IMG/VR virus record: IMGVR_UViG_3300013426_000001
Coordinates: 64,001-128,000 of that record
Length of the DNA stretch: 64,000 nucleotides
Source: a virus
Taxonomy: Duplodnaviria; Caudoviricetes
Direction: 5' to 3' (one strand)
Position numbers and translations under genes: made by a program. Shown one piece after another: positions 31,770 to 63,256 of the stretch. The notes beneath the pieces were generated by a model. That model made no database searches, had not been told where the DNA came from, and saw nothing but the letters and a program-made list of their open reading frames with translations. How positions within the stretch are numbered: position 1 is the stretch's first letter; each line of letters starts with the position of its first letter.

Positions 31770-31858
31770 GGAAACTTGCGAGAGTTGGTTTAATCGACTG
31801 GTCTTGAAAACCAGCGACCGTAAAAGGTCCGTCAGTTCAAATCTGACAGTTTCCGCCA
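31770..31858 (+). tRNA. tRNA-Ser(UGA)
   Basis: GGAAACT/AGTTTCC acceptor, CTGGT-CTTGAAA-ACCAG, long variable arm, TTCAAAT, G73, CCA. Confidence 0.95.
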
Positions 31859-32011: not shown

Positions 32012-32085
32012 AGGCAATTAGCACAAAAGCAGTGCAACCGACTTTGACTCGGTTTACGTTGGAGCGTTACCAGCATTGCCTGCCA
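32012..32085 (+). tRNA. tRNA-Gln(UUG), non-canonical D/T loops
   Basis: AGGCAAT/ATTGCCT, ACCGA-CTTTGAC-TCGGT, T-loop AGCGTTA, GCCA. Confidence 0.8.
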
Positions 32086-32241
32086 TTATGCCGCACGTAC
32101 TTTCACGCGGCGGGGAAGACGAAGAGAAAGCGGAGCTTGAGAAGTGCGCAAACGGAGTAGGTCGTGTGCGCAAGTCATTACTCATCAAGGCAATTACTTT
32201 GGTTAGGCGCAAGATTGCTACGTTTTTGCGAGGAGGTTTAT

Positions 32242-33351
32242 ATGAAACTTAATAAAGCATTTAAATTTAGATTATTGCCAAATCAAAATCAAATAGATCT
32301 CCTTGGAAAAACTTTTGGTTGTTGTAGATCTATTTATAATAAAATGCTTGAAGATAAAATCAAATATTATGAAGAGACAAAAAAGAATTTATCTGTAACT
32401 CCAGCACAATATAAACAAGAATTTGAGTGGTTAAAAGAAGTTGATTCTTATTCTTTGTGTAATGAACAGATGAATTTACAAACTGCTTTCAATAATTTCT
32501 TTAGAAACCCAAAAGTTGGCTTCCCAAAATTCAAAAGCAAAAAGAGTGACAAAAGCAGTTATACAACAAGCAATGTTAGTAATATAATTAGAGTTAACGA
32601 TAAGCACCAAATTCATCTATGTAAACTTGGTTGGGTTAAATTTGTAGAACATCGAAAAATTCCAACTGATTACAAAATTAAATCAGTAACAATTACCAAA
32701 ACTCCATCGGGGAAATATTATATTTCAATTTTAACCGAATATGAATATGAAATCTCCAAAAGAGTTTTAGATAAAAACAAATCTCTTGGATTAGATTACA
32801 GCTCTCATGACTTTTATGTCGATAACCAAGGCAGAAATCCAGAGCATTTACATCATTATTACAGAGATTTGCAAAACAAACTTGCTTTTCACCAAAGAAA
32901 ACTTTCGCATATGGTTAAGGATAGCAACAATTATGCTAAACAGAAAATAGTTATTGCTCGAATACACGAAAAGATTTCTAATCAGAGAAAAGATTTCGTA
33001 GAAAAAGAATCGACGAAACTCGCAGACTTATACGACGTTATCTGCCTCGAAAATATTGATTTGTCAAATATTGCTCAATCGTTAAAACTCGGTAAAAGCA
33101 CGTTAGATAATGCCTTCGGGACGTTCAGAAATAGATTAGAGCAAAAGATGATATTGCAAGGGAAATTGGTCGCCAAAATAGATAAGTGGTTTCCCTCAAG
33201 CAAACTTTGCAGATTTTGTGGTTGCATTAACAAAGATTTGAAATTGTCCGACAGGGTTTGGAAATGTGAATGCGGTAAAACTCTTAACAGAGATGAAAAT
33301 GCTGCGATAAATATTCTTAACAAAGGATTAAAGCAATTGACAATAGCATAA
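32242..33351 (+). CDS. tnpB: TnpB RNA-guided endonuclease (IS605/IS1341-type), no tnpA
   Basis: KAFKFRLLP, GCCRSIYN, GLDYS, CLENI, CRFC/CEC zinc finger, RDENAAINI; GGAGG SD. Confidence 0.95.
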   Translation: MKLNKAFKFRLLPNQNQIDLLGKTFGCCRSIYNKMLEDKIKYYEETKKNLSVTPAQYKQEFEWLKEVDSYSLCNEQMNLQTAFNNFFRNPKVGFPKFKSKKSDKSSYTTSNVSNIIRVNDKHQIHLCKLGWVKFVEHRKIPTDYKIKSVTITKTPSGKYYISILTEYEYEISKRVLDKNKSLGLDYSSHDFYVDNQGRNPEHLHHYYRDLQNKLAFHQRKLSHMVKDSNNYAKQKIVIARIHEKISNQRKDFVEKESTKLADLYDVICLENIDLSNIAQSLKLGKSTLDNAFGTFRNRLEQKMILQGKLVAKIDKWFPSSKLCRFCGCINKDLKLSDRVWKCECGKTLNRDENAAINILNKGLKQLTIA

Positions 33352-33373
33352 AAATATGTTATAATTGAAATAG

Positions 33374-33487
33374 AACCGTTAGAACGACGGGGATAGCTTG
33401 TTGAAACTGATATTGTTTGGTATCTTGAGCAAGAAACTCTGATGTTTTAGCATCGTGAGTAGTTCGCAATACGAGTTTTATTAATCT
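33374..33487 (+). ncRNA. TnpB omega-RNA scaffold / right end plus putative guide
   Basis: AACCGTTAGAACGACGGGGATAGCTTG...GAGTAGTTC, shared with the copy at 48663. Confidence 0.7.
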
Positions 33488-33495
33488 TATGAAAT

Positions 33496-33659
33496 ATGGC
33501 TGTACACGTAACGGCAACGTGACCGAATCGTAAGTGTCGGAAAGGAAATAAACCCTCAATTGAGGCAATCAACGACGGTTGAAAGCGAATGAATTGGGTT
33601 TGAGTTTTCGCGAAAGTGCTCTAACTTTATTGTGAGTTCAAATCTCACCAGCCATTCCA
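33496..33659 (+). ncRNA. giant tRNA-like RNA with about 90-nt structured insertion
   Basis: ATGGCTG/CAGCCAT-T-CCA acceptor, D arm CACG/CGTG, T arm GTGAG-TTCAAAT-CTCAC. Confidence 0.7.
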
Positions 33660-33660
33660 C

Positions 33661-33789
33661 CACCCTGCGGTAGGTATACATACGCGCAGTCCGAAGCTAT
33701 TGGCGGATATGGAATTTGTGTATAGCTAACACACTACGACGGAGTGGACGGGATTTCCCGCGTACCAGACAAAAGAAACCACTCCACCA
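33661..33789 (+). ncRNA. inter-tRNA structured RNA motif, copy A (ends in stem + ACCA)
   Basis: shares CACCCT.CGG.AG / GTCCGAA / TGGCGGATA / ACGAC with copy B. Confidence 0.55.
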
Positions 33790-33866
33790 CGGGGTGTAGC
33801 GCAGCTTGATAGCGCGTTCGGTTTGGGACCGAAAGGTCGGAAGTTTGAATCTTCTCACCCCGACCA
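33790..33866 (+). tRNA. tRNA-Pro(UGG)
   Basis: CGGGGTG/CACCCCG, TTCGG-TTTGGGA-CCGAA, ACCA. Confidence 0.95.
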
Positions 33867-33867
33867 G

Positions 33868-33987
33868 CACCCTACGGCAGACATTCTGAAGATGTTATGT
33901 GTGGTCCGAAAAATGGCGGATAGAGAGAAGGAAGCATTGCGCAATGCTTAGAACGACTGGGAATCTCGACATTAACCTTACCAGCCA
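33868..33987 (+). ncRNA. inter-tRNA structured RNA motif, copy B
   Basis: same conserved blocks as 33661-33789; ends CCAGCCA. Confidence 0.55.
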
Positions 33988-33991
33988 TCAT

Positions 33992-34081
33992 GCTTGGTTG
34001 CCAGAGTCAGTTAAATGGAGCGGATTTGTAATCCGCCGAGCGTCAAAGCTCACGACAGGGCAGAGCTGTCACCAAGCTCCA
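33992..34081 (+). tRNA. tRNA-Thr(UGU) with long variable arm
   Basis: GCTTGGT/ACCAAGC-T-CCA, GCGGA-TTTGTAA-TCCGC, GAGC/GCTC variable stem, T-loop GGCAGAG. Confidence 0.8.
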
Positions 34082-34091
34082 AAATATTTTT

Positions 34092-34139
34092 AGAAACCGT
34101 GTTATTTTGCTTGACACGGTTTCTTTTTTGTGTTATACT
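34092..34139 (+). promoter_or_regulatory. terminator of RNA locus fused to recD2 promoter
   Basis: AGAAACCGTGT...ACACGGTTTCT plus T tract overlapping TTGACA-17-TATACT. Confidence 0.8.
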
Positions 34140-48309: not shown

Positions 48310-48654
48310 CACTTGACAAATATTATTCGAGAAAACGACGTAATTTGTATTGAAGATTTGCAAGTGAAAAATATGGTCAAAAACCATAAACTCGCGCAAG
48401 CAATTAGCGACGTTTCTTGGTCGGAGTTTGTTCGGGAATTAGAATATAAGGCGCGTTGGTATGGAAGATTAGTTATTAAAGTCGATAAGTTTTTCCCGAG
48501 TTCTCAAACTTGCAGTGTCTGCGGCTACAAGAATGAAGGGACAAAAGACTTAAAAGTTAGAGAATGGGATTGCCCTGTTTGTCATACTCATCATGATAGG
48601 GATGTGAATGCGGCGATAAACATTCTCAATGAAGGGCTTAAACAATTAGCCTAA
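48310..48654 (+). pseudogene. tnpB: 5'-truncated tnpB (RuvC-II, zinc finger and RuvC-III only)
   Basis: [29 protein letters not shown]; no N-terminal half. Confidence 0.85.
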
Positions 48655-48662
48655 ACATAAAC

Positions 48663-48774
48663 AACCGTCGGAACGACGGGGATAGCTTGGTAAATATTCT
48701 CGCAGTAGTCGGAAGTTCCCAAGAATCTCGCAGATTTAGTTGTGAGAGGTTCAAACGAGTATATACTCTTAGTA
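48663..48774 (+). ncRNA. TnpB omega-RNA scaffold / right end plus putative guide
   Basis: AACCGTCGGAACGACGGGGATAGCTTG...GAGAGGTTCA. Confidence 0.7.
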
Positions 48775-62310: not shown

Positions 62311-63256
62311 TTCGTTCACCTCCTTTGACTTAAAGCTCTTCCTGTTCGCATTCGAGCTGATATTGGTCATCAACTCCGATGCTGGAAAGGAATTCAGCAA
62401 CCATATCGGCTGCTTGCCTTGCCGTCTTTGCGCAAAAGATGCGAGAGAGGCGTACTTCATCGTTCGTGTCGAGTAACATGATCTTGAAAGTGTAACCTTT
62501 CAGCATTTTGGTACCTCCTTTTTTTGTGCTTTTAGCCAGCCAGCTGTTACGATTTACGAAAACGTAACTTGCCGAATGCTTGCTCGGGCTTGTGACCGAG
62601 CTGCCGCATTAACGCCTTTCGGCGCCACTCTGCGTAGTGTTTTTTACGTGGTTATCGCTTCCACGTCTTGTGTTAGTCTACTATCTCTATTTTGCCGTGT
62701 TTTTTCAAAAGTTCAACTTGTTTCATCATTTTTTCAAATGACGAATAAATGCAGAAATAATCATTTTTAGGATCGTCATGCATAATTTTGAGTTGGAAGT
62801 TATCTAAGCCTTTGTAAAATTTGAAACCTTTAATCATTTTAGGTTCCTCCGTTCTTTATTCCGTTAGCGGTGCTGTTGCTCACTCACGAAGAGCAACCAT
62901 CGAAGCAGTTTTACATCTTACTTGGGATGTAATAATGTATTTCGCTTATAAAATAAGGTAATTTACATTATCTTAATTCACTTTTATTACTATATATAGT
63001 ATATGTTATCCCTTTTCACACTCAACTCAGAATTCCTCCCCCACTAATTAAAGACGCCCAACTCAAAACACCATCCCCTCCTCAAATTCCAACCCGCGTA
63101 ACCACCCATTCCCATTTTTTGAACCCCAATTCTCAATCCACCTCAACCCTCCAAACGTCTGGACAATTTCACATTTACATTCACCCACCTAAAACCTTTA
63201 CCCTTTTGCCCCCTCTTAAAAAAAAATAAAAAAAATCAAAAATCCCCCCAAATCGC

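Follow-up and report, generated by a model that had tools for sequence, protein, structure and literature searches.

A tRNA-like gene with an 88-nt branched variable arm adjoining a TnpB/omegaRNA cassette in a gut phage tRNA array

Results

Organisation of the locus

The stretch of DNA analysed here (the window, 64,000 nt) comprises bases 64001-128000 of a 138.5-kb IMG/VR gut-phage genome with terminal repeats. On its plus strand lies a tRNA array in which tRNA-Ser (31770-31858) and tRNA-Gln (32012-32085) are followed by a spacer, a tnpB gene, an omegaRNA scaffold, the tRNA-like element considered in this study (33496-33659, +, 164 nt), a second spacer, tRNA-Pro, a third spacer, a Thr-like tRNA and a terminator. 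The first spacer (32087-32232, +), located 3' of tRNA-Gln, belongs to the phage backbone: it is common to sister phages lacking the cassette, shows 72-76% identity between cassette-bearing backbones, and ends with ...ACGTTTTTGCGAG, where the cassette begins. The tnpB gene (32242-33351, +) encodes a 369-aa protein of the IS200/IS605 OrfB type, with the Pfam domains HTH_OrfB_IS605, OrfB_IS605, and Cas12f1-like_TNB.

A consensus sigma-70 promoter (33337-33365, +; TTGACA, 17 nt, TG-TATAAT) overlaps the tnpB stop, with 12 of 12 hexamer positions matching and an extended -10. Downstream, the omegaRNA scaffold (33372-33467, +), whose start was placed from the promoter, is homologous to the region following tnpB in 10 other copies and ends with ...GTAGTTCGC. 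A 28-nt guide or leader (33468-33495, +), the first 15 nt of which are AATACGAGTTTTATT, separates the scaffold from the element. The next terminator-like site on the plus strand is found at 34092-34124, with none earlier; given the promoter at the tnpB stop and the lack of a terminator before 34092, the omegaRNA, the element, and tRNA-Pro are probably co-transcribed.

The spacer trailing the element (33660-33789, +, 130 nt) begins with CCCTGCGG, ends with ...CCACTCC-A-CCA, and precedes tRNA-Pro (33790-33866, +); the same spacer follows tRNA-Trp in sister phages. In one contig, L102, it is precisely missing, and tRNA-Pro begins 3 nt past the CCA of the element. With a CCA encoded in the DNA, a trailer otherwise belonging to a true tRNA, and tRNA-Pro so close in L102, this layout would suit the maturation by tRNA enzymes that was originally proposed.

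Two spacers of approximately 125 nt in the array (33660-33789 and 33867-33987) start at tRNA CCA ends with a ..CCCTRCGG.. motif and end with a 7-bp stem followed by N-CCA. In many related phages, spacers of this type come after the element as well as after tRNA-Trp and tRNA-Pro; they are cleanly deleted in L102 and have no match in Rfam. Recombination between these repeats seems to shuffle tRNA cassettes. The Thr-like gene at 33992-34081 has a perfect anticodon arm with UGU and a variable arm of 17 nt; its T loop, GGCAGAG, is non-canonical, and it carries U73-CCA. It is called neither by ARAGORN nor by the Rfam tRNA model and is conserved in L102-L106. Elsewhere in the window, a type-P5 twister ribozyme was recognised on the minus strand at 62584-62634 (Rfam RF02684, 58.2 bits against a gathering score of 37.6).

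The tRNA frame and its central domain

From 5' to 3', the element consists of an acceptor strand, TA, a D arm, a single A, a hairpin, an 88-nt stretch, ATT, a T arm, T, and CCA. Its 5' part (33496-33521, +) contains the acceptor strand ATGGCTG (33496-33502) and the D arm CACG-TAACGGCAA-CGTG (33505-33521), with GG in the loop; its 3' part (33632-33659, +) contains the T arm GTGAG-TTCAAAT-CTCAC (33632-33648), the acceptor strand CAGCCAT (33649-33655), the discriminator T33656, and CCA (33657-33659). In the window copy, all 16 frame pairs are Watson-Crick (7/7 in the acceptor, 4/4 in the D arm, and the 5-bp T stem), and a TTCRANN-type T loop and N73 are present. The acceptor, D arm, and T arm described in the original prediction were therefore all recovered at 33496-33659 on the plus strand, and the element has every part of a canonical tRNA frame, from the acceptor and the GG-bearing D arm to the T stem and loop and N73. 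A chance frame was excluded by a strict scan for acceptor, D arm, and T arm spaced 95-260 nt apart, over both strands of 6 phage genomes (~0.78 Mb), which returned the element plus one other genuine tRNA frame only.

The 88-nt stretch (33541-33628, +) can be drawn as a branched variable arm closed by a base helix, AAAG/CTTT (33541-33544 × 33625-33628), and containing a long bulged helix, an apical TCAAC/GTTGA hairpin, and a small hairpin with a GAAA loop (CGC-GAAA-GTG). All the helices previously listed for this insert, including AAACCC/GGGTTT (33550-33555 × 33596-33601), occur in the sequence; their joint formation does not stand, since CCTC/GAGG and AAACCC/GGGTTT share two C residues and are mutually exclusive in full. 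As in class II tRNAs, a paired arm lies between the anticodon-stem position and the T stem (33541-33544 × 33625-33628, with one compensatory change described below). Known class II variable arms are single hairpins of about 13-21 nt, whereas this one is branched and 88 nt long, far larger, to our knowledge, than in any known tRNA.

A further locus in a related phage, L042:1467-1671 (corresponding to G005:C1:85793-85997), has a perfect tRNA-Thr(UGU) frame with a 129-nt insert inside the anticodon. The insert is itself a tRNA frame: 6 of 7 acceptor pairs form, a D arm is present, the T arm reads GTGGG-TTCGAAA-CCCAC, A-CCA follows, and the Rfam tRNA model gives it 33 bits. Within this inner frame, ~74 nt replace the anticodon and the variable region. 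The locus looks like a tRNA nested within a tRNA.

Distribution and variation of the element

Copies of the locus were sought by exact identity to this TnpB protein and through four proteins of its 90% cluster, yielding 13 further contigs from independent samples. The element is present, always in the same place, in all 14 contigs having tnpB at this site (the window plus 13). Six of the other copies are identical to that of the window, and seven are variants at 3-4 positions. The substitutions include T33561C, at a loop position; G33502A, which creates an A.C mismatch in acceptor pair 7-66 (L106 and L107); and T33656G, which changes the discriminator from U to G in six variants. With 3-4 substitutions in 164 nt, compared with a neutral expectation of ~6.6 at a dS of 0.04, variation is not clearly lower than neutral. 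The proposal of a new class of tRNA mimic finds no support here: every copy sits in a single cassette lineage of at least 97.6% identity.

About 15 distinct related arrays without tnpB at the site, reached through the RecD2 neighbour in IMG/VR and metagenomes, all lack the element. Their slot is occupied by an ordinary tRNA-Trp(CCA) or, in L088, by a Tyr(GUA)-like tRNA. The slot tRNA lies downstream of a hairpin, ACGAGTTTT...AAAACTCGT, and upstream of the CCCTGCGG spacer. For the tRNA in this slot of L088 (365-443), ARAGORN reports a CUGUAAA loop on a mismatched stem.

No homologue of the element was detected by blastn against INPHARED, by three element-sequence or frame patterns in IMG/VR, or by one pattern in GTDB genomes; the RecD2-neighbour loci in IMG/VR and 23 metagenome loci contained none outside the cassette lineage, and no IMG/VR allele carried the element without the cassette. 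The element is thus found only with the TnpB/omegaRNA cassette, as its immediate downstream partner, a context that the original prediction had overlooked. The search for a parent tRNA of normal length with the same acceptor stem returned only an unrelated tRNA-Arg in IMG/VR, and no parent was present among 57 related tRNAs. Likewise, IS ends and the rest of the genome provided only chance 8-12-mers as sources of the insert. A 25-nt match to the insert in G004 was traced to a palindrome within a tnpB gene and was discarded as its origin.

Support for the variable arm, and the readings as a decaying or an intron-containing tRNA

In all seven variant copies, A33541G and T33628C occur together, replacing A-U with G-C at the first pair of the AAAG/CTTT helix and disrupting a competing minimum-energy hairpin (33613-33617 × 33624-33628). 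These are two of the 3-4 substitutions per variant, a coincidence with a rough chance estimate of ~0.005; a shuffle control for covariation gave 91/500, from five sequences only, too few to resolve the question. Because all the copies belong to one recent lineage, the covariation counts as a single event. The compensatory pair gives real but thin support to the giant-variable-arm fold against the minimum-energy fold, upholds the claim of a very large insert at the variable-arm position of a tRNA frame, and hints at selection acting on the arm. Folding energy was less informative: the whole element gave z = -2.3, and the central 110 nt alone folded no better than shuffled sequence (z = -1.4; 18/200 shuffles). 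Since the centre is no stabler than shuffled sequence, the branched domain rests on one compensatory substitution and not on folding energy.

These data bear on a serious alternative, which we consider possible but tentative, namely that the element is a disrupted tRNA in decay, which gained ~90 nt of unrelated DNA, lost its anticodon arm, and persists through linkage to a young, fast-spreading TnpB cassette. Such a history would suit an orphan with no homologue outside the cassette lineage in INPHARED, the IMG/VR patterns, GTDB, or the 23 metagenome loci, as well as a central domain no stabler than shuffled, a substitution count near the neutral expectation, and variants with an acceptor mismatch or a variable discriminator. 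It is harder to reconcile with 16 of 16 perfect frame pairs, a compensatory pair in the insert base helix among so few substitutions, a location behind a consensus promoter, and the lack of a detectable insert source in IS ends or the genome.

Standard detectors did not recognise the element. ARAGORN in default mode did not call it, the Rfam tRNA model (RF00005, 29-bit threshold) gave no match even at E <= 10, and no other Rfam family matched at gathering thresholds or at E <= 10, so that the check for a known family came back empty. Identity as a tmRNA was rejected: acceptor pair 3-70 is G3-C70 instead of G3-U70, as had been noted, and the ARAGORN tmRNA search of the genome returned zero calls, in line with the Rfam result. 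A tRNA interrupted by a group I intron was likewise discarded, in agreement with the earlier size argument, as the non-tRNA part spans only 70-110 nt, compared with ~200 nt or more for such introns, and no Rfam family, including the group I intron, matched at E <= 10.

With its intron option, ARAGORN does call the element, as a tRNA-Ser(UGA) with a 70-nt intron following position 33. Brute-force deletions also yield Ser, Leu, or Tyr class II models on a CGAA/TTCG stem, and the putative 5' exon ends with U and the intron with G. We nevertheless regard an intron-containing tRNA as highly improbable. The proposed anticodon stem has four Watson-Crick pairs and one U.U, with its position one off; 70 nt is far below the size of a group I core, with no Rfam ribozyme found; and none of the proteins that could support protein-dependent splicing (Rnl2-type ligase, RtcB, AAA_33-family kinase) was found to be encoded by the phage. 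The compensatory pair 33541/33628 moreover couples a base of the "intron" to a base of the "exon", which argues against its removal and supports the original view that the insert is not an anticodon-loop intron.

The hairpin at the anticodon position and the question of decoding

The position of the anticodon arm is taken by an 18-nt hairpin, CCGA-ATCGTAAGTG-TCGG (33523-33540, +), which shows no variation in any copy. Its 4-bp stem and 10-nt loop, irregular as first described, differ from the 5-bp stem and 7-nt loop with U33 of a canonical anticodon arm. The loop can be read either as UC-GUA-AG, Tyr-like with C at position 33, or as AU-CGU-AA with a 3-nt GUG bulge, Thr-like. As neither reading is canonical and the discriminator varies between near-identical copies, we doubt a decoding function for the element.

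We judge it unlikely that the element works as an aminoacylated tRNA whose body is of an extreme class II type, decoding through its GUA (Tyr-like) or CGU (Thr-like) loop or charged by SerRS through the long arm. Several features are compatible with it: the arm begins immediately 3' of the hairpin and stops 3 nt short of the T stem, as in class II tRNAs; the anticodon arm of the Tyr(GUA)-like tRNA in the same slot of L088 resembles the hairpin at 13 of 19 positions; a Thr(UGU)-like tRNA of the same array (33992-34081) has a variable arm of 17 nt; and the G73 of six variants is a SerRS-compatible discriminator. Against these stand the lack of a 5-bp stem and 7-nt loop, a GUA reading without U33, a CGU reading that requires a 3-nt bulge, zero matches to the Rfam tRNA model even at E <= 10, and near-identical copies that disagree on the discriminator. 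The acceptor pairs A1-U72 and U2-A71 also seem to fit poorly with the Ser, Tyr, and Thr identity sets, which counts further against a working tRNA.

Another originally proposed function, one particular task that a stable RNA might have, is that of a decoy or sponge occupying host factors that act on tRNAs, either a defence nuclease or a tRNA-binding factor; we consider it very unlikely. Modulation of an aaRS or the ribosome, proposed alongside it, would be hypothetical. One published account describes phage tRNAs whose altered anticodon loops escape anticodon nucleases (PMC10264068), and another describes a Septu system that cuts the variable loop of tRNA-Tyr (PMC13096335); a GUA-containing loop combined with a huge variable arm would suit such a role, but no partner protein is linked to the element.

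A suppressor tRNA was also considered and rejected: the CUCUAAC motif at 33619-33625 has no flanking stem, the genome fits the standard code, and no CUA tRNA is present. The sister phage G005 has an amber-suppressor tRNA with anticodon CUA (G005:C1:6705-6779) and an HNH endonuclease reading frame (L010:5086-5451) in which several TAG codons fall in frame; nothing in the genome of the window points to recoding. Abnormal anticodon loops are seen in Tyr-like tRNAs of L003 (3046-3123), L084 (2046-2123), and L089 (2013-2090), where ARAGORN reports an 8-nt loop with GTAA as the "anticodon".

Positions 33485-33491 in the leader (CTTATGA; CTTACGA in most variants) are complementary to the core of the hairpin loop, TCGTAAG (33528-33534). 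The variant form of this match was reached in 88 of 20000 shuffles, and the window form was not significant. Leader-loop pairing (CUUA(C/U)GA × UCGUAAG, 7 bp in some variants) was set aside as post hoc and not robust across copies.

The TnpB cassette and its guide

TnpB aligns over its full length with the TnpB of ISDra2, conserving the RuvC D/E/D residues and the zinc finger, and tnpB has a dN/dS of 0.15-0.28. The cassette has no tnpA and also lacks the left end of intact relatives: five contigs (L110-L112, L117, and L118) carry the left end and promoter, 60 nt or more, upstream of AAGGAGGTTTATATG, both being missing from the window copy. In three different backbones, the backbone spacer abuts GAGGTTTATATG directly. 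The unit therefore has the catalytic triad, zinc finger, and scaffold of an IS200/IS605 TnpB without the left end and tnpA of a complete transposon.

In 10 related tnpB copies (68-92% identity, protein or DNA), the scaffold ends with ...GTAGTTCAC and the sequences diverge beyond it; the next gene lies ~128 nt past the tnpB stop, and a tRNA-like gene is found in 0/10. Carriage of the element as IS cargo was rejected, since these ten related IS copies stop ~125 nt past tnpB and none carries a tRNA-like gene, which indicates that the element is not part of this IS family.

The guide differs by 1-2 substitutions among cassette variants. Its first 15 nt, AATACGAGTTTTATT, match the minus strand in each sister array without the cassette, either exactly or with a single mismatch, and ATAA always stands just before the match. 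The matching position is the 3' arm of the hairpin directly upstream of the resident tRNA; in G005, two positions of the guide-match site are mismatched close to the ATAA side.

Between backbones, divergence amounts to 1.4-1.6% in tnpB (dS ~0.04), 0.7-2% in the scaffold and guide, and 1.8-2.4% in the element. The block from tnpB to the element is ~98% identical, compared with a difference of ~25% in the spacer immediately to its left, and high identity ends at or just past the element, within the repeated CCCTGCGG spacer. The simplest reading is that this block moved recently between diverged phages.

A segment at 48598-48689 is 76-93% similar, in stretches of 27-50 nt, to the tnpB end and to the beginning of the omegaRNA scaffold, and probably represents an orphan scaffold beside a tnpB remnant.

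Discussion

The reading that we favour, held as a whole with moderate confidence, is that a tRNA gave rise to the element, which retained the full tRNA frame with an encoded N73-CCA, underwent degeneration of its anticodon arm, and expanded its variable arm to a branched 88 nt. Its product would probably be a non-decoding stable RNA matured by tRNA enzymes, and the element would travel with, and perhaps benefit, a spreading TnpB cassette. Most likely, the promoter at the end of tnpB yields one precursor comprising the omegaRNA scaffold, the 28-nt guide, the element, the spacer, and tRNA-Pro. A cut by RNase P at the 5' end of the element would release a stable, CCA-ended RNA of ~164 nt, and the same cut would fix the 3' end of the TnpB omegaRNA, trimming the guide. 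The mobile unit would consist of the left-end-less tnpB, the omegaRNA, the guide, and the element, and would spread among related phages, probably through guide-directed cleavage upstream of the resident tRNA in cassette-less sister phages; recombinational repair from a co-infecting, cassette-bearing genome would then swap that tRNA for tnpB and the element.

The giant arm is left unexplained if the element acts as a handle for RNase P, because any ordinary tRNA could be such a handle. A bolder version, which we hold to be doubtful, makes the giant-armed RNA a working part of a domesticated TnpB cassette instead of a passenger. It would be a natural fusion of tRNA and guide RNA, with guide length set by RNase P and a separate function for the selected arm, and RNA-guided cleavage would let the unit home into sister phages. 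Possible functions of the arm include protection or localisation of the RNA and titration of host defences directed at tRNAs. The favoured reading and this extension both lend themselves to experiment, since the element has a clear genetic partner and the fragment from the promoter to tRNA-Pro is shorter than 600 bp.

Comparison with known systems

By analogy of architecture, the closest known counterpart of the element is RNA C of phage T4. We know of no role assigned over decades to stable tRNA-like RNAs of the T4 RNA C and RNA D type. T4 RNA C (species 1 RNA, rnaC) and RNA D, like the element, lie in a phage tRNA array and measure 120-165 nt, and RNA C likewise combines an acceptor-like closing stem with a canonical T arm (CCGGG-TTCGAAT-CCCGG in rnaC) and a large structured centre where the anticodon region would otherwise lie. 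The element shares this layout, an acceptor-like stem and a T arm around a large centre within a tRNA array, as an architectural resemblance only: no sequence likeness is visible by eye. RNA C, a stable RNA encoded in the T4 tRNA cluster, is 139 nt long. Unlike in the element, the closing stem of rnaC contains two U.U mismatches, a clear D arm is missing, and CCA is not encoded; the T4 RNAs have no linkage to TnpB. The role of RNA C is unknown according to a review (PMC3014915).

Bacterial class II tRNAs (Ser, Leu, Tyr, and Sec) have in common with the element a paired arm between the anticodon and T stems in an otherwise standard frame, from which the element departs by the size and branching of its 88-nt arm, its non-canonical anticodon arm, and its failure to score with the tRNA covariance model. 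Mimics of the tmRNA and YrlA types also join a tRNA-like acceptor/T-arm module to extra RNA domains. YrlA has a circularly permuted architecture and is not known to have a free CCA end. The element differs from tmRNA in its G3-C70 pair, the lack of a tag reading frame, and the lack of an ARAGORN tmRNA call, and with no Rfam match at E <= 10 it belongs to neither type, provided that Rfam holds both.

The cassette resembles IS200/IS605 TnpB-omegaRNA systems of the ISDra2 type in its intact TnpB, its homologous scaffold, and a guide that matches genomes lacking the element. It differs from them in having neither tnpA nor a left end, in a guide that matches the opposite strand of the sister site, and in a tRNA-like gene placed exactly at the guide end and moving with it, a gene that related intact copies do not carry. 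The locus is thus a clean case of a left-end-less TnpB with a guide aimed at sister phages, and it bears on how RNA-guided nucleases turn into weapons or homing devices in phage competition. If a cut by RNase P does define the TnpB guide, the arrangement would be nature's parallel to the tRNA-gRNA arrays engineered for genome editing.
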